A stretch of 64,000 nucleotides of DNA from Escherichia phage 4MG: the sequence record NC_022968.1, one strand, 5' to 3'. Made by a program: the position numbers and the translations under genes. Positions 8,136-64,000 of the stretch are shown here, in pieces; within the stretch, counting starts at the first letter, position 1; each line of letters starts with the position of its first letter. Under the pieces are notes generated by a model. It was not told the DNA's origin. It saw only the letters and a program-made list of their open reading frames with translations, and searched no databases.

Positions 8136-8252
8136 GAAGCGTTGTAAGACGTTTTTATTGTGTGGTAGTACACTTGGGTTACCAACACCTGTTTAATTCA
8201 ATACAGGGCCGCTCAGAGGCTCTGAGGGCTATTGTGGAGGGTTAATTTGGAT

Positions 8253-9629: not shown

Positions 9630-9630
9630 T

Positions 9631-11671: not shown

Positions 11672-11680
11672 GGAGAAGAG

Positions 11681-12088: not shown

Positions 12089-12098
12089 GGGGAAACAA

Positions 12099-14625: not shown

Positions 14626-14996
14626 TGATCTGGTACTGGCTGGCGCTCTTAGGCGCAACACTGGTCACAGGGGGCGGTATTTATACCGCTTTCCGTTTCC
14701 GGAAAGACAAGCTCGATGACTTTATCGACTGGATTCAGGGTAAAGTAAAACGACTGCTGTTGATTTGGGCTGTGGTGTTGGGCCTGGTAACGCTGGCCCT
14801 TACCAAACCGTTGTGGAACACCATGACCTGTCAGTTCGACGGCATGGCCTACAAGGTGAATACGTCTTATTCTTGGTATAAGAATGGGACATATGGCGAC
14901 AAATGCCTGTTCGTTGCTAAGAACGGTGCTCTTTTGCCATTACGAATTATCCGTGACCAACCGGAAGGTGATCACGCAACAGATGTAATTAATTAA
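14625..14996 (+). CDS. membrane protein (123 aa)
   Basis: Track ORF; two predicted TM helices. Confidence 0.45.
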   Translation: MIWYWLALLGATLVTGGGIYTAFRFRKDKLDDFIDWIQGKVKRLLLIWAVVLGLVTLALTKPLWNTMTCQFDGMAYKVNTSYSWYKNGTYGDKCLFVAKNGALLPLRIIRDQPEGDHATDVIN

Positions 14997-15005
14997 GGAG
15001 AATCA

Positions 15006-15695: not shown

Positions 15696-15719
15696 CAATG
15701 GATAAGGGGTCTGTATAAT
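15692..15719 (+). promoter_or_regulatory. strong sigma70-like promoter TTGACA-N16-TATAAT
   Basis: Consensus hexamers read directly, 30 nt upstream of 15750 ORF; coordinates +/-2. Confidence 0.55.
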
Positions 15720-15749
15720 GGCCCCTATCAAGACAGAGAGGAGAAAGCA

Positions 15750-25357: not shown

Positions 25358-25412
25358 GTTGTATGAATTGCGGGGAGAGTTTCTCCCCGATTATAGGCAG
25401 AATGGAGAATAC

Positions 25413-28444: not shown

Positions 28445-28451
28445 TTCTTAT

Positions 28452-28470
28452 GGGGCTTCGGCCCCGTTTT
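28452..28470 (+). terminator. intrinsic terminator-like hairpin (GGGGCTTCGGCCCC + GTTTT) between nrdA and nrdB
   Basis: UUCG tetraloop stem-loop followed by T-run, 12 nt before nrdB start. Confidence 0.5.
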
Positions 28471-35388: not shown

Positions 35389-35393
35389 ATTAA

Positions 35394-35413
35394 CCCGCTT
35401 CGGCGGGTTTTTT
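35394..35413 (+). terminator. intrinsic terminator (CCCGCTTCGGCGGG + TTTTTT)
   Basis: UUCG tetraloop hairpin plus T-run right after stop at 35388. Confidence 0.6.
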
Positions 35414-53708: not shown

Positions 53709-54433
53709 CATTATACGCCACATCTCCTGAAGCGGGAGGATACAATCACCAGACCTGCGTGAAAGGTTGTACACCCTGTTAACATTCTGTCATGTCGATA
53801 AAACACCATTTCATAAACATATACCCCACAACATGTCGATGCTATAAACATGTCTGAAGTGACCCAGCAAATTAGCCGGGGACTAATCGCCTTGCGATAT
53901 ACCCACCCCTCCCCCGCCCGGAGGGAAACGTAAACAGGCCCCTCTCTTTGTGTTTTCTGGCACGAAAATATCCTGAAGAGGCAGGGCCTCGAAGACAGGT
54001 GTTTCTGGGCGCAATCTCTATGTCTGATGTGTTAGACGGACAATCACAGCCCCTCCGGGTTGTCAAGGATCTTTACAAAATATCTGAGAGGTCTGACCAC
54101 GAGACCCTATCGAGTTTTTGGCACGATGATTGCATGATGATTACGTGGCGCAACTAATGATTACAAGTGCAACTATTAGCAATGTGACAGTTTACACCTG
54201 TTACAGCACGATTTGCTCTTGACTTGCTTATATTTGTGTGAATGAGCCTATTTAACATAATACACGTTATGCGAACCACAGATCACCGGGAGACAGGCCA
54301 TATAGTCACATATGTTATCATTGCATCAGTGAACCATACCACAAGGCAACCAATAGCCTGCTACATGTTACCACCACGACAGTTTCACGCTGTTATTATT
54401 CATTTTGTGGGGTGTTTTGTCGATGAGAATACA

Positions 54434-54446
54434 AATGATAATCATT
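54434..54446. promoter_or_regulatory. Fur-box-like palindromic 13-mer AATGATAATCATT
   Basis: Identical to the central 13 nt of the E. coli Fur consensus GATAATGATAATCATTATC; second identical copy at 54584-54596. Confidence 0.4.
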
Positions 54447-54583
54447 CTGAATACGATTTCGATTTCAGTTTCGAAATGAAAACCATTCTCAAATGGAAAA
54501 TATTTTGTAAATCTGCCATAAAAAGCTTGACACAGAGGGAAAAATGTGTTTAGCATTTAAGCCTATCTTGAGCATCCAACCGC

Positions 54584-54596
54584 AATGATAATCATT
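54584..54596. promoter_or_regulatory. Fur-box-like palindromic 13-mer AATGATAATCATT (second copy)
   Basis: Exact repeat of 54434-54446, 150 bp away. Confidence 0.4.
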
Positions 54597-54782
54597 AACG
54601 TTAAGCCTTGCTACGCCTGGCTTTAATAGACTTTTCCTATCAATAAAAAGCTTGACAGTTTACACCTTTTCATGCTCAAGAAAACCGCTTTTCATCGGGC
54701 ATCTAGCCCGGTTTACAACATGATTAATCATGATTTGTCAATCATTAAACATGATTAAACCGCTTTTGATCTTCATAACCTG

Positions 54783-54802
54783 GCGACACAATAACACGAG
54801 GG
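54783..54802. repeat. left arm of perfect 20-bp inverted repeat GCGACACAATAACACGAGGG
   Basis: Exact reverse complement of 54976-54995; arms 173 bp apart with nested 11-bp inverted repeat. Confidence 0.7.
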
Positions 54803-54975
54803 CGATCATGCGATAGCGTGATCGGTGTTATCGTGGCGAGGTTATAAAATACTTCAACTATGCAATAGTTGCATTATGAATTATTCATTGTTCTAGTCAT
54901 CTTGTCTGTTAACGCTTAGGCGCTAACGAGCCACGATAACGCGAACGAAAACGATATTTATTATCGTTTGAGTTA

Positions 54976-54995
54976 CCCTCGTGTTATTGTGTCGC
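54976..54995. repeat. right arm of perfect 20-bp inverted repeat CCCTCGTGTTATTGTGTCGC
   Basis: Exact reverse complement of 54783-54802. Confidence 0.7.
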
Positions 54996-55131
54996 TCGCT
55001 CCGCTCGCGCCACTCACCCCGATAACGCGAACGATATTTTTATTTGACAAAAGATGATTACTATGCTCAAAAAAGACAGTTCACACAAAGGGTTAGATGA
55101 GAAAAGTTATCATTTCAGGGCTTTTGCTTCG

Positions 55132-55327
55132 TATTCACTCAATTTGCATAAAAACACGGTGTTTATTCACTTGATAACCTGCGTTATCATTTTTGGGGTG
55201 TGAGTGAGTCAAAGGCGGGTAATGATACACGATTAAACGCAATATAACGCGTTTTGAGAGGGTTTATCTGTTAGGCTTGCCGTTGTATGGCTTCAAAGAG
55301 ATCTCTTTAAATTCACTTTTTTGCATA
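55132..55327 (-). promoter_or_regulatory. regulatory cassette C: two conserved boxes (ATTCACT-N-TTGCATA type) about 179 bp apart, with AAAGAGATCTCTTT palindrome
   Basis: Boxes at about 55132-55150 and 55311-55327; paralogous to cassettes at 56538-56732 and 61218-61414. Confidence 0.5.
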
Positions 55328-55376
55328 AAGACGGGTAAAGATTTAGTGTTTTGTTTGGGGTGTTGGTATGATATGC

Positions 55377-55400
55377 AAAAAGCCGGGGATTATCCCGGCC
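55377..55400 (-). terminator. intrinsic terminator of leftward block (GCCGGGGA-UUA-UCCCGGC + UUUUU on minus strand)
   Basis: Hairpin and U-run immediately downstream of last minus gene (stop at 55420). Confidence 0.6.
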
Positions 55401-55419
55401 TTACTTGGTGTGACTTTGA

Positions 55420-55635
55420 TCAGATAAACATTGCAGCATAATGATCGTAAAGGTCTTGCGCTTGTCTGGCAGGCCAGCGGCTTTCATCCACCGGGACACG
55501 TAGATCAATCGGGCGGCGATCTTTCAATCCGTTAACATGAAAAAATGTTTCACCTGTAAGCTGTACGATCTCCAGTTTAACGAGGTTGTCAGAATCTTTT
55601 ACGGTCTGCTGAATGAGAATAGTAGTCATTTGCAA
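55420..55635 (-). CDS. hypothetical protein (71 aa)
   Basis: Track ORF; coupled to upstream gene. Confidence 0.45.
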   Translation of the reverse strand: MQMTTILIQQTVKDSDNLVKLEIVQLTGETFFHVNGLKDRRPIDLRVPVDESRWPARQAQDLYDHYAAMFI

Positions 55636-56001
55636 TTACTCCACAATTGTGATGGTTTGACCTGGTAACAGGAAATTCCCGGTTTTATCGTCAAAAATTC
55701 CGGTTGCACTTGTTACGGTGACCGTTTCGCCTGATGTCACGATCATAACTTGGGATTCAGTTGGATAATCAAAGGTGTAAAGGCGAGGTGTTAACGGCTT
55801 GCCGCTTTCTTTCGAATAGTTAACATCATAATCATAAACGGCTTGACATTTGATCGCTACCGTTTCGGCCTTGTAATAGTGGTTATCATAGCCATAGCCA
55901 CGCATAAACGGCGCGGATATTTCCAGGACTTCACACAGCGAACCACGAAACAACATATCGCCTTTTTTCAGGTCTAAAAGGTTGATTTTCTTAAGATCCA
56001 T
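55636..56001 (-). CDS. hypothetical protein (121 aa)
   Basis: Track ORF; GAGAGG SD after stem-loop. Confidence 0.45.
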   Translation of the reverse strand: MDLKKINLLDLKKGDMLFRGSLCEVLEISAPFMRGYGYDNHYYKAETVAIKCQAVYDYDVNYSKESGKPLTPRLYTFDYPTESQVMIVTSGETVTVTSATGIFDDKTGNFLLPGQTITIVE

Positions 56002-56024
56002 TTTGTTTACCTCTCAAAGTGTAA

Positions 56025-56043
56025 CGGGGCGACTAGCGCCCCC
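56025..56043 (-). repeat. intergenic GC-rich stem-loop (CGGGGCG-ACUAG-CGCCCCG)
   Basis: Lies between stop of 56052-56429 and SD of 55636-56001. Confidence 0.5.
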
Positions 56044-56051
56044 GATGATTA

Positions 56052-56429
56052 TTACTGATAAGCGGGATCGTTGGTGATGTCGATCCAATGAGTTAAATCA
56101 ATTTTGCCTTTTTCTTTCATTTTCTCGATCAGGCGGTCGGCTAATGTCTCAGAACGAACATAAACATTCTCGCTAAAATCCTGGCCTGTTTCATCGTCGA
56201 TCATTTCGCAATATTCGATTTTACCGATGAAAGCATGATTCAAGGCGTAAGTTTTACCAGTAAACCAGTTGTGTAAATGAATCTCGCATTTATAATCATC
56301 GCTACGGCCTTCAGTAGTCATAACGTCGATCAGATCACCTTTGAAAACTGAAAGATTCCACATGAGATCTTTAGTTTTACCGCCAAAATCTTTAGTTTCT
56401 ACGGTTGAAGCCAGGTTAATGATCGACAT
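56052..56429 (-). CDS. hypothetical protein (125 aa)
   Basis: Track ORF; AAGAGG SD; first gene after cassette D. Confidence 0.45.
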   Translation of the reverse strand: MSIINLASTVETKDFGGKTKDLMWNLSVFKGDLIDVMTTEGRSDDYKCEIHLHNWFTGKTYALNHAFIGKIEYCEMIDDETGQDFSENVYVRSETLADRLIEKMKEKGKIDLTHWIDITNDPAYQ

Positions 56430-56485
56430 TTGATTTACCTCTTAGTCTGTTTTGTTTGATTTCGTTTGTTTGCCCTACGAGATAA

Positions 56486-56514
56486 ATATTACTATAGGGG
56501 GATCAGCACGTCAA
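56486..56514 (-). promoter_or_regulatory. sigma70-like promoter on minus strand, TTGACG-N17-TAATAT
   Basis: Read on reverse complement; about 50 nt upstream of ATG at 56429 and about 25 nt downstream of conserved box. Confidence 0.5.
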
Positions 56515-56537
56515 TAGCTCTTTACATAACTTTACAC

Positions 56538-56732
56538 TATTCACTGTTTGCATCTTTATGCATCGCTATGCAATTCATTTCATGGTGAAATTACTTTTTA
56601 GGCGTTTTTCCGTGTCAAGCTATTTTTATATAGCCTTTAAACGTCCTGTAACGCGTTTTAAGCGGTTTTGCGTCCAGGCTGTACCCTAGCCCGTTTTAAC
56701 GGAGATCTCCCCATATTCACTATTTTGCATAG
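56538..56732 (-). promoter_or_regulatory. regulatory cassette D: two conserved boxes about 175 bp apart, with GGAGATCTCC palindrome and Fur-box-like motifs nearby
   Basis: Boxes at about 56538-56553 and 56713-56732; internal segment shares AACGCGTTTTAAGCGG-like motif with cassettes C and E. Confidence 0.5.
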
Positions 56733-56884
56733 GATTTGAGGGTGTAGTGATAATCATTCTCATCGCCCAGCGATTAGCCCCCGGCTAACTATCTAAATGA
56801 TAGTGATTCTCATTACCGGAATAACAGGCACCTCCGGTGGCTTTCCTCCGGTGTCCATCGTTGCCGCTTCCACAAAAGAATAAC

Positions 56885-56912
56885 AAAAACCGGGACAGAA
56901 AACAAGCCCCGG
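56885..56912 (-). terminator. candidate intrinsic terminator on minus strand (CCGGGG...CCCGG hairpin + UUUUU)
   Basis: Immediately downstream of stop of 56926-57243; loop is long (about 13 nt), so weaker call. Confidence 0.35.
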
Positions 56913-56925
56913 AATTGTAAAGATT

Positions 56926-57243
56926 TTAGCGGATATTTATCCCGGCGGGTAGCCAGTAGCCAGAATAATGATCATGAGGTGTGAACCCGTGGGACGGCTT
57001 TATATATGTAACTGATAACCATTCTCGATCATCCAGATAAAGCGCCTCATCTATTGCCACCACAAAACACAATTCACCTTCACGATCTTTAACGGTTGCG
57101 ATAGCGTGTTTTTCTATCGCCTTTTCAAGTGCAGCCAGGCCGCGCCGGAATTGTTCCGGGCGTGTGCGGTAACCTAAGTTATCCTCAGGGCAAAGTCTGT
57201 TTAAGGTAGCCCAGCTAACCGCAATCATTTTTTGAAGTGTCAT
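56926..57243 (-). CDS. hypothetical protein (105 aa)
   Basis: Internal ATG of track ORF with AAGAGG SD; abuts stop of upstream gene. Confidence 0.4.
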   Translation of the reverse strand: MTLQKMIAVSWATLNRLCPEDNLGYRTRPEQFRRGLAALEKAIEKHAIATVKDREGELCFVVAIDEALYLDDREWLSVTYIKPSHGFTPHDHYSGYWLPAGINIR

Positions 57244-57253
57244 TGTCTGCCTC

Positions 57254-57730
57254 TTATCTGTAACGGTGCATTGATTCACGATAGACCGATCCGCCGTCGA
57301 ACTTCTCCGCACTTCTCAGGGCGTCCACTAGCTCGCACATTTTGCGGAGTACATACGAACAATGATCATTAAAGTCAATGGCTTTTTTAATCATTTCCTC
57401 TTTACTCTCCCCATCAATAAAGACAAGTTGATCAAGGGCGTTATAGTGATCAAGCCAGGCGCGGATCGCGTCATGCTCCAGGGGGCGATCTGTCTGGCTA
57501 AAACTTGACAGGCCGAAAGATTCAAAAGTGTTTACATTGTCCATTAATTCATCATAAGCGGTTTCCCAGCTACTAGCCCAGAACTCAACCGCATCAGATT
57601 GAAAATCAGGATCATCAGGGTCAATAAAACAGATTGAAAAAAGTTGCAGGCCTTCACGCTTTGTTAAGGTATAGCGAGCACTATCAAGGGCGCGTGTTTT
57701 GGTGTCTTCTGGGGTGATTTCATATTTCAT
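57254..57730 (-). CDS. hypothetical acidic protein (about 158 aa)
   Basis: Frame of track ORF; start chosen at MKYEITPED; start uncertain. Confidence 0.4.
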   Translation of the reverse strand: MKYEITPEDTKTRALDSARYTLTKREGLQLFSICFIDPDDPDFQSDAVEFWASSWETAYDELMDNVNTFESFGLSSFSQTDRPLEHDAIRAWLDHYNALDQLVFIDGESKEEMIKKAIDFNDHCSYVLRKMCELVDALRSAEKFDGGSVYRESMHRYR

Positions 57731-57872
57731 TCTTTGATACCTATAAACGGAAAATGTGAGAGATCTGCGGGGCGTAAGTGTTGACTTTGAACCCATTCAC
57801 CAGACATCAGAGCCAGGACACGGGAACCGCGCCAGCGGTAGCGATTCCCATTCAAAAGGTTAACGTAAATGA

Positions 57873-58100
57873 TCATGCGCCGTAAAGACCATCACTATTA
57901 AAATCATCCTCAAAAGAGGCCAAGTATTCGAAAAATTCAAACTCCATCGCGACAACATGTTTAACCAAATCAGCATTTTTGTATTCAGCCGGGGACAGGC
58001 GGATCGGCGCGTCACTATATAGATCCGTAAGTTCGATGTATTCCCCGACCTTTTGAGCGGTTACCGTGTTTTTCTTGTTGTCGAAAATTACTTGTTTCAT
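57873..58100 (-). CDS. hypothetical protein (75 aa)
   Basis: Track ORF. Confidence 0.45.
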   Translation of the reverse strand: MKQVIFDNKKNTVTAQKVGEYIELTDLYSDAPIRLSPAEYKNADLVKHVVAMEFEFFEYLASFEDDFNSDGLYGA

Positions 58101-58321
58101 GATATACGCTCAATAATAATGATTGCTTGCGGGATAGAATCAGGAGTAACGATCAGGGCTTTTGATTGACGAATTTTAAAGCCTAGTTTCGCTTTGCACA
58201 CCGTGGCGGTCATTTTCCGCATTTCAGGATCTACGTTTGCACCTTCACAGAACCATACAGCCTTTTCACCTGCGATAAGGTTGCGTAAAAATTCAGTTTG
58301 CCCGGTTTGATTCTTTAACAT
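58097..58321 (-). CDS. hypothetical protein (74 aa)
   Basis: Track ORF; AAAGGTAAAC SD after stem-loop. Confidence 0.45.
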   Translation of the reverse strand: MLKNQTGQTEFLRNLIAGEKAVWFCEGANVDPEMRKMTATVCKAKLGFKIRQSKALIVTPDSIPQAIIIIERIS

Positions 58322-58342
58322 TTCGTTTACCTTTCAAAGTAT

Positions 58343-58361
58343 GCCGGGGACGTTCCCCGGC
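58343..58361 (-). repeat. intergenic stem-loop GCCGGGGA-CGU-UCCCCGGC
   Basis: Perfect 8-bp stem, about 20 nt upstream of ATG at 58321. Confidence 0.55.
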
Positions 58362-58368
58362 TTGCTGA

Positions 58369-58629
58369 TTAGATTGATTTTTCGATATCGGCTAAAATCT
58401 CTTTTGCAAGAGTATAGTTTACATTCAGATCCCGCGCTATGTCTTCGGCTAACAGTTTACGACCTACGTTACCGAAACTTAACATTCTTTTAACTTCTGG
58501 TAACCCTTTGCCCCAATAGTTATAGCAGGAATCACCGATATATTTTGAGTAAAACGCGTTATCGTTGCGAACTCCACCTAAAACAGCGACATTAACAGAG
58601 ATAACGTGTTTAAAATTGTGCTTTTCCAT
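58369..58629 (-). CDS. hypothetical protein (86 aa)
   Basis: Track ORF; AAAGGTAAAC SD after stem-loop. Confidence 0.45.
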   Translation of the reverse strand: MEKHNFKHVISVNVAVLGGVRNDNAFYSKYIGDSCYNYWGKGLPEVKRMLSFGNVGRKLLAEDIARDLNVNYTLAKEILADIEKSI

Positions 58630-58649
58630 TTTGTTTACCTTTTCGGCTT

Positions 58650-58670
58650 GCCGGGGAGGTATTCCCCGGC
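58650..58670 (-). repeat. intergenic stem-loop GCCGGGGA-GGUAU-UCCCCGGC
   Basis: Perfect 8-bp stem, about 20 nt upstream of ATG at 58629. Confidence 0.55.
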
Positions 58671-58714
58671 CTCAAAAAGATATTAACCGATCCGCGCCTT
58701 GCTTGCAAGCGTTT

Positions 58715-59059
58715 TTATTCATCTTCCCCGTAATCATCGCCAATGTTGAAAATGTCCAGCATATCACCAGCAGCGATCCACAGCAGGTACATTTCCAGGG
58801 TATGGCGATCCATATTATCGATCCCGTCTACCCCTTCACGCTCGATCCCGGTTTCAGCCAGATAATCCCGGATCATTTGATCGGTGTAGGCGCTAAACTG
58901 TAAACCGTCCCGGAAATAGGGCAGGGCTTCAACGGTGGAGGCTTCACAATCCCCAGAGTGGGCGATCTCTTCTACCTGGTCACGGTCACGGAAAATCAGA
59001 CACAACCGACCACAGGAGGAAGACCAATAAACGTTTTTCTTTTTCATGATTAAGCCCAC
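58715..59059 (-). CDS. hypothetical acidic protein (114 aa)
   Basis: Track ORF. Confidence 0.45.
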   Translation of the reverse strand: MGLIMKKKNVYWSSSCGRLCLIFRDRDQVEEIAHSGDCEASTVEALPYFRDGLQFSAYTDQMIRDYLAETGIEREGVDGIDNMDRHTLEMYLLWIAAGDMLDIFNIGDDYGEDE

Positions 59060-59283
59060 ACTTTAGCATAAGAGAAGAGATCGGAAATATAGCCACGATA
59101 CCCGCCGCGCTTGTGATTGCTTGCGTTATTCTTCCAGGCAACAACCACAGATCCCGAACGTTTTACACCACAGAAGATCCCGCGATCCCCACCTTTTCCG
59201 GCTTCTACCCATTGCCCCGGCTGCAATTTTGCAACGTTGGTTTGAGCGTCCCAGATATCCACGGTTTTAGTGTATCGTGCCAT
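59050..59283 (-). CDS. hypothetical protein (77 aa)
   Basis: Track ORF; AAAGGTAAAT SD after stem-loop. Confidence 0.45.
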   Translation of the reverse strand: MARYTKTVDIWDAQTNVAKLQPGQWVEAGKGGDRGIFCGVKRSGSVVVAWKNNASNHKRGGYRGYISDLFSYAKVWA

Positions 59284-59303
59284 AATATTTACCTTTCATT
59301 ATG

Positions 59304-59323
59304 ACCGGGGACAATCCCCGGCC
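59304..59323 (-). repeat. intergenic stem-loop CCGGGGA-CAA-UCCCCGG
   Basis: About 20 nt upstream of ATG at 59283; followed on minus strand by CATAAT. Confidence 0.55.
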
Positions 59324-59335
59324 TGTTAGAATACT

Positions 59336-59677
59336 TTAGCCGATCTGGTTTTCAGAGTCAACCGGGAAAACATCATTTACAATCTCAACAACTACCGCGA
59401 AAACATCCAGAGCATCACGGATCGGCAGGCTATCCGCTTGCTTTACATAGCCTTTCACGCTTTCAAGCTGATAAGAGATGTAATGAGCTTTGCAGGGTTT
59501 TTGTGTGCCGTGATCAATGCTGTTTTCCGTGCGGATCATGATATCCAGGCGATCCCCGTTCACAGCGTCATTGATATGACAAAAACGCAATAACGTTTTA
59601 TCATCGAAACGACGAAAATCACATTTTGCTTTGTCAGTAACGCCAGCCAGGAAGAAAAATTTATTTGCCAGTTCCAT
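59336..59677 (-). CDS. hypothetical protein (113 aa)
   Basis: Track ORF; GAGG SD. Confidence 0.45.
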   Translation of the reverse strand: MELANKFFFLAGVTDKAKCDFRRFDDKTLLRFCHINDAVNGDRLDIMIRTENSIDHGTQKPCKAHYISYQLESVKGYVKQADSLPIRDALDVFAVVVEIVNDVFPVDSENQIG

Positions 59678-59692
59678 TTTTAAAACCTCGTT

Positions 59693-59809
59693 TTAGAATA
59701 AAGATAATAACAGCAGGAAGATCACGAAAGACCACACCAGACGACACATGATCCGCGCCTCAGTGTAAACCGGGTTTTCGGTAGTGTATTCTACTTTGTA
59801 ACCTTTCAT
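59693..59809 (-). CDS. tiny membrane peptide (38 aa)
   Basis: Not in track; GAGGTG SD; hydrophobic C-terminus LVWSFVIFLLLLSLF. Confidence 0.3.
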   Translation of the reverse strand: MKGYKVEYTTENPVYTEARIMCRLVWSFVIFLLLLSLF

Positions 59810-59826
59810 GATTCACCTCACCAGGT

Positions 59827-59847
59827 GACCGGGAACCGCTCCCGGCC
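59827..59847 (-). repeat. intergenic stem-loop CCGGGA-ACCGC-UCCCGG
   Basis: Between 59889-60185 and the 59693-59809 peptide ORF. Confidence 0.5.
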
Positions 59848-59888
59848 TTGTCTGATAATTATTGATCAACCGTTCCCCGTTGTCAAAT

Positions 59889-60185
59889 TTATTTTTTGGC
59901 CTCTTGTGTGGCGTACATTTCAACCAAACTTTGAGCGCTCAAATTATCCACAAAAAAGGATGTCACGGCAACCGCCGGATCACCTTCCACGGCTTCACCT
60001 TCCGGCATTGGTTCGACTTCCGGCGATGGTATGCAAGCCGGATTAATCCAGCGGCGATCCTCGGAATAGCCACGCGCTACAATGTAGCAGGTTAGCGGAT
60101 CGTCGTATGATTCAACAATAAAATCATCACACTGTTTAAGCGCAAGGGCGCTATAAAAACACATTCCGGCGAATACTTCAAACAT
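59889..60185 (-). CDS. hypothetical protein (98 aa)
   Basis: Track ORF. Confidence 0.45.
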   Translation of the reverse strand: MFEVFAGMCFYSALALKQCDDFIVESYDDPLTCYIVARGYSEDRRWINPACIPSPEVEPMPEGEAVEGDPAVAVTSFFVDNLSAQSLVEMYATQEAKK

Positions 60186-60194
60186 GATCTTTAC

Positions 60195-60413
60195 CTACTT
60201 TTTGAGGGTGAGGATAGGGCGTTTATCGCCTTCTTTAACTCCGGGATCTAGCTCATCACAGATCCCGATCTGCTCGCCTTTGCCTAACGTGTATTCGTTT
60301 TCGTACACGTTGCAAGCCTGCTCGGTGGGGAATGTTTTTTTAACATCCCAGCTACATTCTAACTTCATTGAAGTTAGCGAGATATGGCAGGCCATAACGA
60401 TAAACCCGAACAT
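60195..60413 (-). CDS. hypothetical protein (72 aa)
   Basis: Track ORF. Confidence 0.45.
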   Translation of the reverse strand: MFGFIVMACHISLTSMKLECSWDVKKTFPTEQACNVYENEYTLGKGEQIGICDELDPGVKEGDKRPILTLKK

Positions 60414-60649
60414 TACGCCACCTCTTCAAAAGTCGATTCCCAGGCCCCGTGATAATCAACGCCGTTTTCGGTGTCCTCATCACAAGAGTGGATATTATCA
60501 AAAAGTTCGCCGGATGTATAGCCCTCATTCAACATTTCGAAAATTCTTTCTTGTGCTGATTCTTCTAAAAAATCCGCGTGGCGGTCTAATACTTCACCGT
60601 TATTATCTGACTTTTTCCACCAATAAGAGATTTTGATTTCGCGTTTCAT
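60413..60649 (-). CDS. hypothetical acidic protein (78 aa)
   Basis: Internal ATG (MKREIKISYWW) of track ORF with GGAG SD. Confidence 0.4.
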   Translation of the reverse strand: MKREIKISYWWKKSDNNGEVLDRHADFLEESAQERIFEMLNEGYTSGELFDNIHSCDEDTENGVDYHGAWESTFEEVA

Positions 60650-60756
60650 TTTTCGGACTCCAGAATGATATGGATAGCGACAACAGAGCAAGCCGCTACG
60701 ATGAAAGATACCAGCGCCGCCACACACCAAAGGTTTGTATAATCTAACATTTTCAT
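60646..60756 (-). CDS. tiny membrane peptide (36 aa)
   Basis: Not in track; AGAGAGG SD; ATGA overlap with downstream gene. Confidence 0.35.
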   Translation of the reverse strand: MKMLDYTNLWCVAALVSFIVAACSVVAIHIILESEK

Positions 60757-60826
60757 TACCTCTCTTTAAGTGGTGGCATTATTGCCGCCTATGAATAAAG
60801 ATACCATAAGCGGCGCAGATTGCAAG

Positions 60827-61117
60827 TTATTTTTTGATCTGGTTTGTGCGGTTATAGTCCTCATACCGTACACGGGACACGGTGACCGATTGAGGGAGGA
60901 GGCAACGCACACGATCCGCGCGGTTGTCATATTTCTGGATATGTGCCGGGGTATTGTTGCGGGTAAACTTCACGCGTAAACGTAATTTTGTTGGATCACG
61001 GTCATCGATCCCGGTGACCACACCGAACCCAATTTGACCATAATTATGATAAACCATTTTGCCCAAGTATTTGTTTTCAAGAGCATTTTTAGTCAGAGCA
61101 TTCATTACTTTACACAT
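60827..61117 (-). CDS. hypothetical protein (96 aa)
   Basis: Track ORF; AAAAGGTAAAT SD; first gene after cassette E. Confidence 0.45.
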   Translation of the reverse strand: MCKVMNALTKNALENKYLGKMVYHNYGQIGFGVVTGIDDRDPTKLRLRVKFTRNNTPAHIQKYDNRADRVRCLLPQSVTVSRVRYEDYNRTNQIKK

Positions 61118-61168
61118 GATATTTACCTTTTGGTTGTGTGGGCTTCACTATGTCGCCCTACGTGTTAA

Positions 61169-61196
61169 ATATTAACAGATTCACGCCAGGACGCAA
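61169..61196 (-). promoter_or_regulatory. sigma70-like promoter on minus strand, TTGCGT-N16-TAATAT
   Basis: Read on reverse complement; about 50 nt upstream of ATG at 61117, downstream of conserved box. Confidence 0.45.
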
Positions 61197-61217
61197 GAAA
61201 ATTATTAAATCTTTACA

Positions 61218-61414
61218 ATATTCACTGTTTTGCATAAGTATTCAATGATATGCAAATAGTTTCACGTTGTTACTAAATTTAAGCCCTTTTGAGCGTGGCG
61301 CGGTTTCGTGATACCGCTTTAAAGCTCCTGTAAGCCTCTCTAAGCGCTTCAACGTCGAACCCTGGCAAGTGCATCACCTCGCGGAGAAGTCCCCAAATTC
61401 ACTTTTTTGCATAG
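61218..61414 (-). promoter_or_regulatory. regulatory cassette E: two conserved boxes about 177 bp apart
   Basis: Boxes at about 61218-61236 and 61395-61414; paralogous to cassettes C and D. Confidence 0.5.
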
Positions 61415-61440
61415 AAAAAAGGCCGGGGATCGTCCCGGCC
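61415..61440 (-). terminator. intrinsic terminator on minus strand (GGCCGGGACGAUCCCCGGCC + UUUUUU)
   Basis: Hairpin and U-run immediately downstream of stop at 61446. Confidence 0.6.
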
Positions 61441-61445
61441 TCTTG

Positions 61446-61649
61446 TTAGTCAGTTTGTACGGCTTGCCACTGTAAAGCACGTTTGCGATCCGCCAACCGT
61501 TTATTGAGATTTGGATCATAACGGTCTGGCGTCCAGGTTTTGGCAACGCGTTCCGGCTTGTGTAATTTGTCGTTACGTTGGCGGCGCTCGTTTACTTCAC
61601 CATAAGCCAGGCGATCACGCTTGCTTGTCATCTTCTCAATATTTCGCAT
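61446..61649 (-). CDS. hypothetical basic protein (67 aa)
   Basis: Track ORF. Confidence 0.45.
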   Translation of the reverse strand: MRNIEKMTSKRDRLAYGEVNERRQRNDKLHKPERVAKTWTPDRYDPNLNKRLADRKRALQWQAVQTD

Positions 61650-61663
61650 TCTAAACCCTCGTT

Positions 61664-62011
61664 TTATTTTCGTTTGTTGTATACATGTTCAATGATCCGG
61701 CCTTGCTGTTCTGCTAGCTCATTAGCTCGCCATTCTATGATCTCGGTTATCTGCTCTTTTGTGCCTTCTTTGTGATACGTGATAAACCCGCCACGCTTTT
61801 TCACTTCACACAATAGCCCGTTACCCTCAAGATCATTTAATGCCCCAGATCGCCGGGTGTGGTAGTGCTTACCGTGGAACCTATATTCAATATAATGATA
61901 CACTTTCCCGATCCTGTATTCGTAGTAAATCCAGAGCACTCCCCGCCATAGCCTGGCGGGGATCTTCCAGTAAATAGCAGCAGCAGCTACCAAAAACAGG
62001 ATTTTAAACAC
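61664..62011 (-). CDS. hypothetical protein with N-terminal hydrophobic segment (115 aa)
   Basis: Track ORF. Confidence 0.45.
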   Translation of the reverse strand: MFKILFLVAAAAIYWKIPARLWRGVLWIYYEYRIGKVYHYIEYRFHGKHYHTRRSGALNDLEGNGLLCEVKKRGGFITYHKEGTKEQITEIIEWRANELAEQQGRIIEHVYNKRK

Positions 62012-62013
62012 TG

Positions 62014-62580
62014 TTAATAATCCTCTAACATTTCGCGCAGGGCTTCCAGTTCCTCACCTGTAAAGATCTTGCGGAGTTCCTCGCCTGTTTTCTGGCAAGC
62101 AAGATAAATCTCTAAACCTTTGCGGCTATCCTCATCATAACCCATGTTAGCGCAAAAATCAGCATGAGTTTCTGATCCACAATCAGCATCAGCTAGCAGG
62201 CAGTAAAGCACGTTTGCGGCGCAAGGTGTCGCAACATATACACGGTAACCGAAAGACATTGCTTTATTATTGTTGCGTTTGTAATCGTCGCGTGTCCAGT
62301 TTTTCTGATCCACTTGTGCAACTTTCGCGCCAACTTTCGCAAGCTCTCGCGCATCAGTCGGAGTTACGCCACCGTTACGGCCTACACGGTGCCCGGTTCC
62401 CGTTTTAAATTCAGTGCGGTAAACGTTAGCGCCCTTTTCGAAACTCACAAAAAACAGATCCGCTTCCCACTTAGGATCATTGTTAACGCCGCCATATTGA
62501 GCATTAAAAGTAATGCCCTTTTCTTTCAGGAAGTTAGAAACGGCTACGTCTTGATCGTTGAAAGTGATTTTGTTATTCAT
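62014..62580 (-). CDS. hypothetical protein (188 aa)
   Basis: Track ORF; largest gene of the right block; no motif recognised. Confidence 0.5.
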   Translation of the reverse strand: MNNKITFNDQDVAVSNFLKEKGITFNAQYGGVNNDPKWEADLFFVSFEKGANVYRTEFKTGTGHRVGRNGGVTPTDARELAKVGAKVAQVDQKNWTRDDYKRNNNKAMSFGYRVYVATPCAANVLYCLLADADCGSETHADFCANMGYDEDSRKGLEIYLACQKTGEELRKIFTGEELEALREMLEDY

Positions 62581-62675
62581 GATATTTTACCTTTTGTTTG
62601 GTTTGGCATTATTGCCGGGTTATTTCTCTTACTTGGTGGAGCTATCTTAAAGCCCCACCTATTAAGAGTCAACAA

Positions 62676-62861
62676 CTATTTAATAATTTCTTTGCCGAAA
62701 GAATCAAAAGAGGCGATCACTTTTAGATTATCATCTAACAGCTTGCCGGGGATCTTTAGATTGTTGATCCGTTGGCTAGCCTCTTGTTTAACGTCCTCAA
62801 TAGTGCGGCTTGCCGAATTGAAGATCGTTAAAACTTGCCCGTTATCCATGCTTACAACCAT
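62676..62861 (-). CDS. hypothetical protein (61 aa)
   Basis: Track ORF. Confidence 0.4.
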   Translation of the reverse strand: MVVSMDNGQVLTIFNSASRTIEDVKQEASQRINNLKIPGKLLDDNLKVIASFDSFGKEIIK

Positions 62862-62862
62862 T

Positions 62863-63258
62863 TCACACCGCCTTTAAATAATTGTTAGTTACTCGGTAAA
62901 CGTGGCGATAAGCTTGTTTTTTGGTGTGCGGCGCATAGGTCATAGACTGATAAGCCAGATCATAACCGATTTTTTCAAGCCAGTAAAGCGCGGCGCTTTG
63001 CCCTTCATTGTGTGATTGTTCCCGGCGGCGTGGCGATTCCAGGACGGTGACGCCGAACCCGGTATAACCATTTTGCACGGACAGAAGATCCCCACGGTGA
63101 AGCGTGGCGCGGTATTTGTTGATCGTGTTACCGTTGACATCTCGCCCAAAATCAAAGGAATCAATGACCACGAAAAAATCCCCGGTTGTCTGGCGTGAAA
63201 CTTCTTTCAGGCGGTTAACAGCGTCATACAGATTGATTGAGGTTTTAAACTTTGCCAT
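62863..63258 (-). CDS. hypothetical protein (131 aa)
   Basis: Track ORF; AAAGGTAAAG SD after stem-loop. Confidence 0.45.
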   Translation of the reverse strand: MAKFKTSINLYDAVNRLKEVSRQTTGDFFVVIDSFDFGRDVNGNTINKYRATLHRGDLLSVQNGYTGFGVTVLESPRRREQSHNEGQSAALYWLEKIGYDLAYQSMTYAPHTKKQAYRHVYRVTNNYLKAV

Positions 63259-63288
63259 TTTCTTTACCTTTAGTCAGTGCCGGGAACC

Positions 63289-63306
63289 GTCCCGGCTTGA
63301 GTAGAA
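63289..63306 (-). repeat. intergenic stem-loop GCCGGGA-ACCG-UCCCGGC
   Basis: About 25 nt upstream of ATG at 63258. Confidence 0.5.
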
Positions 63307-63337
63307 TTATCGGCTTTTCTTGCCGGGGTGTCAATAC

Positions 63338-63631
63338 TTACAGAAGATTTTTTAATTCTTCGTAAGTGGCGGCGCTAATCTCGGTTACAGATTTAACACG
63401 TACAACATGAGCGCCACAATCAGACCAATAACCGCTTTCGTTCACTTCGTCGATATCATCGAAAGAATAATGGGCGGCGGCGCAACGGTTTTCCGCTTCG
63501 TTGGTTGCATCTTCCAGGGAGTGATCAACAATAAGATCCACGGTCGGGAATTCTTTCCCATCATACATGCAATAGATACGGGCAAGGAAAAATTTTGCTG
63601 GGGCGGTAGTGGTTTTGTTTGTAGTAGTCAT
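63338..63631 (-). CDS. hypothetical acidic protein (97 aa)
   Basis: Track ORF; AAAAAAGGTAATAC SD after stem-loop. Confidence 0.45.
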   Translation of the reverse strand: MTTTNKTTTAPAKFFLARIYCMYDGKEFPTVDLIVDHSLEDATNEAENRCAAAHYSFDDIDEVNESGYWSDCGAHVVRVKSVTEISAATYEELKNLL

Positions 63632-63652
63632 TTTGTATTACCTTTTTTGTGT

Positions 63653-63671
63653 GGCGGGAACTATTCCCGCC
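63653..63671 (-). repeat. intergenic stem-loop GGCGGGA-ACUAU-UCCCGCC
   Basis: About 20 nt upstream of ATG at 63631. Confidence 0.5.
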
Positions 63672-63711
63672 TTGATTTGTAATATAATCGATCTAGCTTA
63701 GGATTGCAAAT

Positions 63712-63909
63712 TTATTTTGCAACATAATCCGGGTTAGGTGTACGGCGTTCAATGATCCGGGCTTCGTACCCGTTGCGGCGATAATCTTTCTTTGTTGCTC
63801 TCGCATCAGACCAATTTGCCTCGGCGCAGGAATCCTCCCAGCCGTTGCAGGTTCTTTCCTGTACGATGATTTCATAAAGCCATTTATTAACACGCGGAGC
63901 CTTTGCCAT
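63712..63909 (-). CDS. hypothetical protein (65 aa)
   Basis: Track ORF; GAGGTAAAC SD. Confidence 0.45.
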   Translation of the reverse strand: MAKAPRVNKWLYEIIVQERTCNGWEDSCAEANWSDARATKKDYRRNGYEARIIERRTPNPDYVAK

Positions 63910-63940
63910 TTCGTTTACCTCGTTTTGTTTCGGTTTTGGT

Positions 63941-63970
63941 ATTATGCGCCGGATTCCCGGCGCTTGTCAA
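63941..63970 (-). promoter_or_regulatory. candidate sigma70-like promoter on minus strand (TTGACA-N18-CATAAT) with stem-loop GCGCCGGGAAUCCGGCGC in the spacer
   Basis: Read on reverse complement at right edge of window, about 30 nt upstream of ATG at 63909. Confidence 0.4.
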
Positions 63971-64000
63971 ATTTATTTTCTTGCCATATGAGCAGCAAGC

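Follow-up and report, generated by a model that had tools for sequence, protein, structure and literature searches.

The GC-rich hairpins that punctuate the ORFan-rich leftward gene block of a Seunavirus probably form the stem-loop part of early-gene cassettes of the promoter-early stem-loop (PeSL) type and would act as RNA. PeSLs are known from the T4-like phages RB49/phi1, PST/T4 and nt-1/KVP40 (Arbiol et al. 2010, PMC2839356; Comeau et al. 2014, PMC4122927). The stretch of DNA analysed here, referred to as the window, comprises 64,000 nucleotides of Escherichia phage 4MG (NC_022968.1); its source belongs to Seunavirus (Vequintavirinae) and shows 92% identity to Cronobacter phage GAP31.

Results

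Inventory of the hairpins

A preliminary description had listed nine copies of a stem-loop and a related CGGGGCG hairpin, and a check of the sequence confirmed all ten (one position, 63289, is a misprint for 63279):

55382-55399, minus strand, hairpin followed by a U-run
56026-56042, minus strand, hairpin with stem GGGGCG/CGCCCC
58343-58361, minus strand, hairpin
58650-58670, minus strand, hairpin
59305-59321, minus strand, hairpin (59303-59323 with the G.U-extended stem)
59829-59845, minus strand, hairpin (longer form 59827-59847)
61420-61441, minus strand, hairpin followed by a U-run
63279-63296, minus strand, hairpin
63653-63671, minus strand, hairpin with stem GGCGGGAA/TTCCCGCC
63946-63963, minus strand, hairpin with stem GCGCCGG/CCGGCGC

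An additional hairpin at 56890-56912 was absent from that list, and a further one enclosing a -10 element (62635) had also been overlooked. The 12 members comprise three with a U-tract, five in promoter cassettes, one in a promoter spacer, one around a -10 element and two that are promoter-poor. The strict pattern GCCGGG-N3-12-CCCGGC is seen five times against 0.02 expected; the stems of the 63653, 63946 and 56026 copies differ from this type. The bases before the stems are CAAG, as described earlier, in some copies only and AAGG or ACAGG in others. All matches of a covariance model of the hairpin at E<0.05 fall in 55.3-63.7 kb, and no match at this threshold was found in the remaining 55 kb of the window. 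The UUCG loops ascribed to terminators of the rightward block were recovered, as C(UUCG)G-type loops, in plus-strand hairpins at 10239, 28450 and 35392 and in the minus-strand reading of 4122; they are lacking in the plus-strand hairpins at 44896, 48434 and 52490, so that this ascription holds in part only.

Loops measure 3-7 nt, stems 6-9 bp and whole hairpins 17-25 nt, and the isolated hairpin has a predicted folding energy between about -13 and -16 kcal/mol. These dimensions bear on the earlier suggestion that the hairpins are sites for RNase III or another double-strand-specific enzyme, which would divide the polycistronic early RNA into single-gene transcripts, as happens in T7. The hairpins stand between cistrons at regular intervals, as do the structures of the T7 early region; the latter, however, are irregular duplexes of about 20 bp, and classical RNase III sites in general extend over about 20 bp or roughly two helical turns, often with internal loops. 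Since stems of 6-9 bp fall far below this length, and since no Rfam family matched the hairpins, we regard such processing as highly unlikely, with a chance close to negligible.

U-tract members

Three members end strings of genes:

T1, 55379-55402, minus strand, terminator AAGGCCGGGAUAAUCCCCGGCUUU then UUGCAU, after gene 55420-55635
T2, 56890-56912, minus strand, terminator CCGGGGC-UUGUUUUCU-GUCCCGG then UUUUUGUUAUUCUUUU, after gene 56926-57312
T3, 61417-61444, minus strand, terminator AAGAGGCCGGGACGAUCCCCGGCCUUUU then UUCUAUGC, after gene 61446-61649

T1 (-16 kcal/mol, z -3.9) marks the end of the last leftward transcription unit; it has orthologues in nine relatives, and its counterpart in the PVP-SE1 record is annotated as a rho-independent terminator. 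The T2 stem was found by folding the minus strand of 56860-56930 (positions 19-41 there), and T3 (-20.1 kcal/mol, z -5.3) is kept in ten relatives. As predicted from GC stem and U-tract, the three are ordinary intrinsic terminators that split the block into three leftward transcription units. Two of them, at 55382 and 61420, had been recognised correctly on the coding (minus) strand, and the third, at 56890-56912, had been missed. Their stems are of the CCGGG type, as in the cassette hairpins, but the U-tract that they share with rho-independent terminators is absent from the other nine family members, in which the next 9 nt hold 0-4 T and, in most copies, the sequence up to the Shine-Dalgarno (SD) motif is A-rich.

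Promoter-hairpin-SD cassettes

Five U-less hairpins lie 9-10 nt past the -10 element of good sigma-70 promoters, an arrangement that had escaped the preliminary description:

58627-58708, minus strand, cassette: -35 TTGCAA 58708-58703; -10 TAATAT 58685-58680; gap 9 nt; hairpin 58670-58650; SD 58641; ATG 58629
59281-59361, minus strand, cassette: -35 TTGACT 59361-59356; -10 TAAAGT 59338-59333; gap 9 nt; hairpin 59323-59303; SD 59295; ATG 59283
59807-59886, minus strand, cassette: -35 TTGACA 59886-59881; -10 AATAAT 59863-59858; gap 10 nt; hairpin 59847-59827; SD 59819; ATG 59809
63256-63334, minus strand, cassette: -35 TTGACA 63334-63329; -10 GATAAT 63311-63306; gap 9 nt; hairpin 63296-63279; SD 63270; ATG 63258
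63629-63709, minus strand, cassette: -35 TTGCAA 63709-63704; -10 TATATT 63686-63681; gap 9 nt; hairpin 63671-63653; SD 63644; ATG 63631

The order is an AT-rich tract (AAAAAATAAAT at the start of the 59827 cassette, AAAATAAAT in the 63653 cassette), a sigma-70 promoter (N17), 9-10 nt, the hairpin, a short A-rich spacer of 7-8 nt, an SD of the AAGG/GAGG type (AAGGTAAA in most copies) and ATG. From stem end to ATG we measured 17-21 nt in the five cassettes, in agreement with the approximately 20 nt stated before. All promoters named here are assigned by match to the consensus alone; the orthologue of the one in the 59827 cassette carries an annotation in the PVP-SE1 record. Folding reproduced the expected hairpins, in most cases with the SD left unpaired. 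The 59303 hairpin reads GGCCGGGGA-UUG-UCCCCGGUC with one G.U pair, the 63653 hairpin GGCGGGAA-UAG-UUCCCGCC (z -3.5), and near-identical 63653-like hairpins stand behind promoters in rV5, ABPH49 and KE23.

The spacing is narrow: among 33 non-duplicate hairpins of the window and its relatives whose promoter scores 8 or more, the gap from -10 to stem is 8, 9 or 10 nt in 31 (4, 20 and 7 cases). Four of the eight promoter+SD sites of the block show structure near the start site with an energy of -9 kcal/mol or lower, vs 4.3% among control windows (Fisher p = 3e-4); when GAP31, KB57 and rV5 are pooled with the block, the figures are 15/50 sites vs 89/2400 controls (p = 6e-10).

Because the stem lies 9-10 nt past the -10, the mRNA made for the gene itself would have its hairpin beginning near +2 to +4. 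RNA synthesis driven by the promoter of the cassette would, in this dominant class, start 1-4 nt ahead of the stem, and the transcript would carry a 5'-terminal hairpin abutting the ribosome-binding site, with few unpaired 5' nucleotides left for RppH or 5'-end-dependent RNase E. Stem-loops at the 5' terminus stabilise E. coli mRNAs, examples being ompA and papA (Emory, Bouvet and Belasco 1992; Arnold et al. 1998; both as cited in PMC3997798). The cassettes resemble these in the stable hairpin a few nucleotides from the predicted 5' end, in the ribosome-binding site close behind and in the logic of shielding the 5' end against RppH and 5'-end-dependent RNase E (PMC8833179); they differ in that the 5' end is predicted from promoter consensus only, in that the cassette is repeated before many genes and in that the hairpin also occurs where it cannot be 5'-terminal. 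At least two unpaired 5' nucleotides are required by RppH and RNase E, and three or more are preferred (PMC8833179); the predicted 1-4 nucleotides straddle this threshold, and protection could be partial or absent.

Members inside promoters or without a promoter

Four U-less members depart from this layout:

56026-56042, minus strand, intercistronic hairpin GGGGCG-CUAGU-CGCCCC; promoter not convincing
58343-58361, minus strand, intercistronic hairpin GCCGGGGA-ACG-UCCCCGGC; SD 9 nt downstream; ATG 58321
62578-62672, minus strand, hairpin-around-the--10 cassette: -35 TTGACT 62672-62667; -10 TAAGAT 62649-62644 in the loop of hairpin 62659-62635; ATG 62580
63907-63970, minus strand, hairpin-in-the-spacer cassette: -35 TTGACA 63970-63965; hairpin 63963-63946; -10 CATAAT 63946-63941; ATG 63909

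The 56026 hairpin lies 7 nt past the stop of gene 56052-56429 and 12 nt ahead of the SD of gene 55636-56001, with an invariant stem and a variable loop in seven relatives including FENT2 and KB57. At 58343 (-18.1 kcal/mol, z -3.3) only a degenerate promoter is seen (best 6/12). The 62635 hairpin (-22.9 kcal/mol, z -5.6) is separated from its ATG by a long leader. The 63946 hairpin (-15.6 kcal/mol, z -4.1) was correctly described as flanked by TTGACA and CATAAT; it occupies the whole 18-nt promoter spacer, the commonest PeSL layout in RB49, and is followed by an A/C-rich leader that is unstructured when folded alone.

A 5'-end role is impossible for 63946 and 62635, because the hairpin sits inside the promoter, and for 58343 and 56026, because there is no promoter. 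A second role, common to all classes and including the hairpins that lie inside promoters and outside their own transcript, would concern read-through transcripts, on which a hairpin just past the preceding stop would block 3'-exonucleases or attenuate read-through. A stem-loop past a stop codon could halt 3'-to-5' exonucleases and protect the 3' end of upstream cistrons. In this position the hairpins resemble intercistronic stabilisers and REP-like 3' barriers; REP elements are longer, host-encoded and bound neither to promoters nor to a set spacing ahead of the next SD.

It is possible, though rather unlikely, that the U-less hairpins do nothing but attenuate or terminate upstream transcription, damping read-through from tandem early promoters, and that any 5'-end effect is incidental. 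Attenuation or termination is the function proposed by the PeSL authors, and a single RB49/phi1 PeSL stem-loop before lacZ cut expression as much as rrnB T1 (PMC2839356). The hairpins of the window are intergenic and directly past the upstream stop codon, they survive where the promoter has decayed (58343, 56026), those inside promoters (63946, 62635) can affect upstream transcripts only, and three family members with U-tracts are clearly terminators. However, canonical intrinsic termination requires a U-tract, which follows none of the U-less hairpins. Moreover, strong attenuation at every junction would depress the expression of the genes that follow 58343 and 56026 and have no promoter of their own, and attenuation does not call for the stem to lie so uniformly 8-10 nt past the -10, a narrow placement kept in rV5 with unrelated stems (9-12 nt). 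Each of the three earlier readings, stabilising hairpin, attenuator and promoter-spacer structure, may apply.

Conservation of pairing

Conservation in related phages was borne out: in flank-anchored orthologues from 11 phages the hairpin is retained while loops vary (the 58650 hairpin in ten relatives). Both stem sides change at 59827 (a C-G to G-C flip in FENT2, besides an extra G-C pair in KE23), at 62635 (G-C, G.U and A-U variants at the same places), at 63946 (GCGCCCC/GGGGCGC with two flips in KE23, one G.U pair in PVP-SE1 types) and at 63279 in KE23 (GCCAGGG/CCCTGGC, two double changes). A family alignment, fitted to the structure and including plus-strand copies of the same hairpins, is 96.6% paired with three pairs altered on both sides (45 cells); pairing drops to 23-72% in slid registers, and the covariation score is 0.261, which 0/500 shuffles reach, vs 0.107 when shuffled. 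With strand-neutral detection the coding strand is the better folder in 63/78 cases and holds 27 G.U pairs vs 11 on the antisense strand; the sequences in both the covariation and the strand tests are phylogenetically related. As read from these alignments, compensatory substitutions maintain the stems across the 11 relatives, and together with the coding-strand bias they indicate structure at the RNA level.

The same data bear on the view that the inverted repeats act as DNA, either as operators bound by a dimeric repressor, of phage or host origin, that shuts off early promoters, or as cruciform/hairpin sites tuning promoter opening. The palindromes lie where operators usually do, across +1 to +20, the spacer or the -10 of promoters, and share a recurrent CGGG...CCCG core, with the GGCGGGAA/TTCCCGCC stem nearly identical in distant genera. 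Yet half-site spacing is not fixed (loops 3-7 nt, length 17-25 nt), compensatory flips keep pairing while changing the sequence that a protein would read, the strand bias of G.U-type pairs and folding is not expected from double-stranded DNA recognition, and some members are promoter-less and others terminators. We consider this view improbable.

Distribution and gene replacement

The cassette layout is also present in Mydovirus, rV5 and an Acinetobacter phage, with other stems in rV5, KB57, ABPH49 and WPEC1; in rV5 the offset from the -10 is 9-12 nt and the stems are unrelated. The proposed family of dedicated RNA elements fits the conservation, the confinement to this gene block and the RNA-level signals. 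It extends beyond this phage, its members being found across Vequintavirinae.

Homology to relatives breaks within cassettes at 58361, 58622, 59284, 59362, 59862, 63303 and 63980. At 58343, similarity to GAP31/PVP-SE1 types stops exactly at 58361, and EspYZU14 has CCCCGG-UUCG-CCGGGG at this junction; in the 63279 cassette, similarity to PVP-SE1-type phages stops at 63303. In these phages, a 63653-like promoter and hairpin are joined to the 63279 gene in a chimeric cassette, preceded by a gene, gp197, that has no relation to those of the window. Twelve of 38 breakpoint clusters lie in cassettes vs 12.5% expected for random positions (p = 0.002). Most other breakpoints, on comparison with the ORF list, coincide with hairpin-less boundaries between genes, and the enrichment therefore does not establish a special role in recombination.

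That the hairpins have no RNA function and are merely the conserved core of mobile cassettes, providing homology by which ORFans are shuffled as in the PeSL mini-circle model, would suit the seven breakpoints, the chimeric cassette in PVP-SE1 and the likeness of paralogous cassettes, which match one another over 57-90 nt at 71-83% identity; PeSL mini-circles have been shown in RB49 and phi1 (PMC2839356). Selection for homology would, however, keep sequence, whereas here pairing is kept with the sequence altered, rV5 has the same layout with quite different stems, and hairpin-less gene boundaries serve as breakpoints about equally often. This leaves the idea decidedly improbable.

Discussion

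The composite promoter-hairpin-SD architecture has already been described as PeSLs (PMC2839356, PMC4122927). The elements of the window share with them the intergenic succession of AT-rich tract, near-consensus sigma-70 promoter, stem-loop, SD and start codon, the G-run/C-run stem-loop with occasional G.U pairs, the many repeats among clustered small genes without known function, the three positions of the stem-loop (within the spacer, around the -10 or downstream of it), and gene replacements between close relatives that join within cassettes. Scanning RB49 with the same script recovered all three positional classes, which are also described in PMC2839356. The differences are that this phage belongs to Vequintavirinae and the PeSL phages to Straboviridae; that the stem-loop 8-10 nt past the -10 is dominant here and rare in RB49, where one of 15 PeSL-like promoter-hairpin elements in the stretch scanned had the downstream layout (gap 9); that the stems are CCGGG/CGGG-based vs AGGGGAT...ATCCCCT; and that promoter, terminator and mini-circle activities were measured in RB49/phi1, whereas the cassettes here are predicted from sequence. 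No small-ORF homology to RB49 was found in the 40 kb examined, in which only NrdA and NrdB match. Our literature search found no Vequintavirinae transcriptome.

The hairpins probably work at the RNA level as part of PeSL-type cassettes; the rigid spacing could stem from common descent of paralogous cassettes rather than from selection. Because the cassettes are alike, they would offer short homologies for swapping whole small genes between related phages. The finding extends the known PeSL design to a new phage group and is not a new kind of element.

Results

Members of the hairpin family and their setting

The stretch 55300-64000 of the window shares 92% identity with Cronobacter phage vB_CsaM_GAP31 and also matches Enterobacter phage EC152, Escherichia phage LNA4, PVP-SE1, SSE121 and other members of Seunavirus (Vequintavirinae). 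Its plausible genes are all short and all on the minus strand. The genes of the orthologous stretch in GAP31 are annotated as hypothetical proteins, and ten open reading frames of the block have either no PHROG match or matches solely to families of unknown function. A scan of 54000-64000 with the Rfam covariance models gave no match with E ≤ 1. Ribosome binding sites differ by block: the leftward early block mostly has AAAGGTAAA, and many promoter-proximal sites elsewhere in the window have AAGGAGAAA. Genes for tRNA-Lys(CTT) and tRNA-Met(CAT) are present on the minus strand at 2032-2107 and 2802-2878.

A perfect-stem scan recovered every GC-rich hairpin listed in a preliminary description of this block, and at the positions listed there except for one placed at 63289, whose correct span is 63279-63296. 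The copies had been called near-identical, which holds for the five that follow the strict pattern GCCGGG-N3-12-CCCGGC (0.02 expected in the window); the remaining copies have related yet different stems (GGCGGGAA/TTCCCGCC, GCGCCGG/CCGGCGC and GGGGCG/CGCCCC). When eleven 19-nt hairpins were made into a covariance model, all its matches with E < 0.05 fell at 55.3-63.7 kb and none in the other 55 kb of the window; in the GAP31 locus (47.8 kb) matches were found only in 18.9-28.6 kb, the orthologous 10 kb. The members are:

55379-55402, minus strand: terminator, hairpin with U-tract
56890-56912, minus strand: terminator of the CCGGG type (9-nt loop, one G.U pair, long U-tract) at the end of the middle transcription unit
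61417-61444, minus strand: terminator, hairpin with U-tract
58650, 59303, 59827, 63279 and 63653, minus strand: full cassettes of promoter, hairpin, SD sequence and ATG
63946, minus strand: hairpin in the promoter spacer, 18 nt between TTGACA and CATAAT
62635-62659, minus strand: hairpin around the -10, with TAAGAT in the loop; absent from the preliminary description
58343 and 56026, minus strand: hairpin, SD sequence and ATG only, no convincing promoter

A stem-loop directly followed by a U-tract, the criterion for an intrinsic terminator, is present at 55379-55402, 56890-56912 and 61417-61444. Two of these had been recognised as terminators before; 56890-56912 is an addition. The other nine members have only 0-4 T in the next 9 nt. 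After each of the three terminators come some 300-500 nt of non-coding DNA and then a new promoter, and the block thus comprises three leftward transcription units. A terminator role in the antisense direction was considered and rejected, a T-rich plus-strand tail being present only at 63653. UUCG loops, proposed as the terminator type of the other block, were confirmed as C(UUCG)G at 28450-28467 and 35392-35409 (plus strand) and, read on the minus strand, at 4122-4139, and as G(UUCG)C at 10239-10256 (plus strand); the loops at 44896, 48434 and 52490 differ. A 9-bp GC hairpin, TCCCCGCCA...TGGCGGGGA, lies at 61940-61962 within the coding region of gene 61664-62011; GAP31 retains it, with a U.G wobble among its pairs.

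The non-coding stretches of the right-hand block also contain a 17-nt motif, TATGCAAAAnAGTGAAT, in four exact copies, all downstream of U-tract terminators (0.9 expected even with three mismatches allowed):

55311-55327, 56715-56731, 61220-61236 and 61397-61413, minus strand: exact copies of TATGCAAAAnAGTGAAT
near 55130 and 56540: degenerate copies

The motif is conserved across all Seunavirus relatives. The promoters that lead the units are found downstream of it (TTGACG-N17-TAATAT at 56514, TTGCGT...TAATAT near 61190), and both carry TAATATTTAnCnCGTAGGGC after the -10. The 17-nt motif might bind a regulator or might itself be a promoter of a non-sigma-70 kind.

Anatomy and spacing of the cassettes

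In the five full cassettes a -35 hexamer (TTGACA, TTGCAA or TTGACT) is followed by 17 nt, the -10, another 9-10 nt and the hairpin; 7-8 nt after the stem comes an AAGG/GAGG SD sequence (AAGGTAAA in most), and the ATG stands 17-21 nt from the stem. The upstream gene's stop codon lies at the 5' end of the cassette, the SD sequence and start codon of the downstream gene at its 3' end. Some full cassettes, not all, are headed by an AT-rich tract, and a tract of the AAATAAAT type lies upstream of 59886, 63709 and 63970. By consensus matching only, 7 of the 12 elements agree with the hexamers at 8 or more of 12 positions and have a spacer of 17-18 nt. The rightmost hairpin, 63946, does lie between TTGACA and CATAAT as described before, and fills the spacer. 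The CAAG noted ahead of the stems is likewise present; we read it as the end of the discriminator together with the likely start site (a pyrimidine-purine step 7-8 nt past the -10).

The spacing is rigid, and not only in the 4MG window. The window and nine relatives together hold 33 non-duplicate hairpins whose promoter scores 8 or more. From the -10 to the first paired base the gap measures 8, 9 or 10 nt in 4, 20 and 7 of them, together 31 of 33; in nearly all cassette entries from these genomes the SD sequence begins 7-9 nt past the stem. Structure of -9 kcal/mol or lower close to the start site was found at 4 of the 8 promoter-like sites of the block with SD-ATG versus 4.3% of control windows (p = 3e-4), and, once the early regions of GAP31, KB57 and rV5 were added, at 15/50 versus 89/2400 controls (p = 6e-10). 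Two promoter types are present, one with a short leader and no hairpin, the other with a long leader (SD 35-44 nt past the -10) and a hairpin. The predicted 5' UTRs fold as the hairpin alone, with the SD sequence mostly unpaired. Directly upstream of the -10, one subfamily of cassettes carries GATCGGT, GATCGGC or GATCGAT, which contains a Dam site (58686-58692, 59339-59345, 63687-63693 and orthologues), and another has GCCGATAAT, which suggests paralogous cassette lineages.

Conservation of pairing and strand preference

Orthologous junctions in 11 phages were located through their flanks and not through the hairpin. The hairpin was kept at every one of them, while the loop sequences drift. 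At 59827 a C-G pair becomes G-C in FENT2, and KE23 has an extra G-C pair. The KE23 orthologues of 63279 (GCCAGGG/CCCTGGC) and 63946 (GCGCCCC/GGGGCGC) are changed on both sides of the stem; at 62635 the same two pairs are G-C, G.U or A-U depending on the phage, and the 58343 junction of EspYZU14 reads CCCCGG...CCGGGG. Column-wise pair counts from MAFFT alignments of paralogues and orthologues were distorted by 1-nt register shifts between stem variants, to which many apparently non-pairing cells and one poor paralogue/orthologue alignment are due; we therefore relied on the covariance-model alignment and on direct reading of the flank-anchored orthologues. Of the cells in the family alignment, 96.6% pair, and changes on both sides affect three pairs (45 cells); sliding the partner by 1-3 columns lowers pairing to 23-72%. 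The covariation score was 0.261 versus 0.107 after shuffling, with 0 of 500 shuffles reaching 0.261. All of these counts come from related sequences, in an alignment fitted to the structure that includes plus-strand copies of the same hairpins. Restriction was also considered, each hairpin carrying CCSGG, and dropped, since avoidance would deplete such sites and here they are enriched.

When hairpins were detected in a strand-neutral way, 63 of 78 unique ones folded better on the coding than on the antisense strand, and G.U pairs number 27 on the coding versus 11 on the antisense strand. This bias argues for a structure that acts in the RNA, or at least in a single strand, in the sense of the genes. 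Readings at the DNA level appear improbable: a double-stranded operator was rejected on the variable spacing of the half-sites, the compensatory flips and the strand bias.

Breadth among phages

The cassette layout also occurs in Klebsiella phage KB57 (Mydovirus), Acinetobacter phage ABPH49 and Escherichia phage WPEC1, and in rV5 (Vequintavirus), where the stems differ widely (GGGGCAAG/TTTGCCCC versus GGGGC/GCCCC) and the gaps are 9-12 nt. Nearly the same hairpin, GGCGGGAA-NNN-TTCCCGCC, was seen 10-12 nt past sigma-70-type promoters in different genera and hosts (Escherichia, Acinetobacter):

rV5 locus 8107-15685: hairpins like GGCGGGAA-NNN-TTCCCGCC
ABPH49 1090-1108 and 1522-1540: the same type
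WPEC1 1030-1049 and 1503-1517: the same type

The searched passages of the rV5 genome paper list promoters and terminators separately and do not mention a composite arrangement; the PVP-SE1 record likewise holds promoters and terminators as separate features with no composite arrangement. Several early ORFs are noted in the rV5 record as similar to RB49 ORFs. Elsewhere in the window, promoter-associated hairpins were seen at 5856-5873 (minus strand), 15705-15726 and 25371-25389 (both plus strand); two hold the -10 in the loop (TAGAAT, TATAAT) and one lies 14 nt downstream of TTGACA-N17-TATCTT.

Breaks in homology and gene shuffling

BLAST homology between the window and its relatives breaks repeatedly inside cassettes, at 58361 (the last base of a hairpin), 58622 (by a start codon), 59284, 59362, 59862, 63303 and 63980. 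Cassette intervals make up 12.5% of the region and contain 12 of 38 breakpoint clusters (p = 0.002 versus random positions). Most other breakpoints lie at gene boundaries without a hairpin, for which reason the enrichment was not taken as evidence specific to cassettes. GAP31 and PVP-SE1 have a different gene in place of ORF 58369-58629, which lies between two hairpins, and the window version is found in EspYZU14, SPLA5a and KB57; only rV5/phi92-like phages have the ORF behind 58343. One clear chimeric cassette was found, in phages of the PVP-SE1 type: a promoter and hairpin like those of 63653 are joined via a shared ACTGAAAAGGTAA to the gene that the window has behind its 63279 cassette, and gp197, the gene upstream, is related to neither window gene. 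As far as sequence comparison goes, these data show modularity of whole genes and do not demonstrate that cassettes are special recombination sites. That the hairpins serve recombination only is a reading with the chimera and the breaks on its side and the equally broken hairpin-free boundaries against it, and we regard it as very improbable.

Discussion

Relation to the PeSLs of T4-like phages

Promoter-early stem-loops (PeSLs) have been described in T4-like phages by Arbiol et al. (PMC2839356) and Comeau et al. (PMC4122927) as a repeated cassette of an AT-rich tract, a sigma-70-like early promoter, a polyG/polyC stem-loop and the SD sequence and ATG of the next gene. They concentrate in hyperplastic ORFan regions, and their stem-loop takes five positions relative to the promoter, 'downstream of the -10' among them (PMC2839356, PMC4122927). 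Promoter activity, attenuation by the stem-loop and mini-circles were assayed by reporters and inverse PCR (PMC2839356). The 4MG hairpins are similarly repeated and concentrated among small genes of unknown function (55.3-63.7 kb), and include stems with a G-run followed by a C-run (CCGGGG/CCCCGG, GGCGGGAA/TTCCCGCC and similar; about -13 to -16 kcal/mol for the hairpin alone). By its sequence features the family belongs with the PeSLs.

When 40 kb of RB49 were scanned with our own script, the hairpin mostly filled the spacer (TTGAC-AGGGGATCACCGATCCCCT-ATACT) or enclosed the -10, and one hairpin lay 9 nt downstream of the -10. The window has the same three classes, with five members downstream of the -10, one in the spacer (63946, identical in layout to the commonest RB49 class) and three around the -10 (62635, 5856 and 15705). 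The element at 5856-5873 (minus strand), which reads TTGACA...GGGGTGTAGAATCACCCC-ATCAAAAC...AAGGAGAAAC, closely resembles the RB49 PeSLs with the -10 in the loop, in its hairpin and in its ATC(A/G)AAAC leader with a AAGGAGAA SD. Unlike in RB49, the dominant class in 4MG and its subfamily sets the hairpin where the mRNA is predicted to begin, a difference of emphasis. The finding is not categorically new; what is added is an extension of PeSL-type cassettes to Vequintavirinae, with a start-site-proximal emphasis. Gene exchange with RB49 across families was not supported: in tblastn of all window ORFs against the 40 kb of RB49, NrdA and NrdB were the only matches.

Possible functions of the hairpins

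Sequence analysis establishes the composite layout and its rigid spacing, the conserved pairing, the preference for the coding strand and the three terminators with U-tracts. For the hairpins without a U-tract we infer function, and we lean towards a dual-use RNA hairpin. RNA polymerase of E. coli usually starts about 7 nt after the -10, and own transcripts of the dominant class would therefore begin 1-4 nt before the stem; with a predicted +1 at 7-8 nt past the -10, the gap of 8-10 nt predicts 1-4 unpaired 5' nucleotides. The stem, 17-21 nt before the ATG, would end at the edge of the ribosome footprint and so leave little single-stranded RNA exposed. RppH and RNase E need at least 2 unpaired 5' nucleotides and prefer at least 3 (PMC8833179), and E. 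coli mRNAs are made more stable by a stem-loop at the 5' terminus (Emory, Bouvet and Belasco 1992, with the studies of papA and ompA, as cited in PMC3997798). A literature search for a transcriptome or start-site map of Vequintavirinae gave nothing usable.

Such a role at the 5' end cannot account for the hairpins inside promoters and those lacking a promoter. Common to all classes would be a stable hairpin just past the stop codon on transcripts derived from upstream, where it might act on read-through as a barrier to 3' exonucleases or as an attenuator. The PeSL authors favoured, and partly tested, a role on upstream transcripts (PMC2839356). We consider a model of pure attenuation rather unlikely, and true termination at these hairpins seems unlikely because they have no U-tracts. 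The earlier interpretation as a dedicated family of RNA elements holds in part, and its suggestion of RNase III processing is not supported. An RNase III site is a duplex of roughly 20 bp, often imperfect; the stems here have 6-9 bp, and only 62635 reaches 15 bp, outer helix included, which makes such processing extremely improbable.

A wider version of the dual-use reading, which we put forward as a doubtful proposal, is that the start-site-proximal cassette (-10, 8-12 nt, hairpin, short A-rich spacer, SD) would be common to Vequintavirinae, would have been selected for resistance of early mRNAs to 5'-end decay by RppH and RNase E, and would be homologous to, and exchanged with, Krischvirus PeSLs in a cross-family mobile pool of 'promoter + RNA-shield + ORFan' units. 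Resistance of this kind could serve where the phage itself speeds the action of RNase E on host RNA; for rV5, a protein resembling Srd has been proposed (rV5 genome paper).

In practical terms, promoters, terminators and transcription units could be better annotated in therapeutic phages of the PVP-SE1, GAP31 and rV5 type, and the cassettes may be useful as compact, insulated expression parts. Since the Vequintavirinae version places the hairpin at a fixed distance, where the 5' end of the mRNA is expected, it would offer a clean test set made by nature, in which several near-identical cassettes differ in having or lacking a promoter or a U-tract, for asking what share one short hairpin has in mRNA protection, read-through control and gene shuffling. 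If our reading is right, PeSL-type cassettes are not confined to T4-like phages, and would be a general way in which large virulent enterobacterial phages package accessory early genes as self-sufficient, swappable units.
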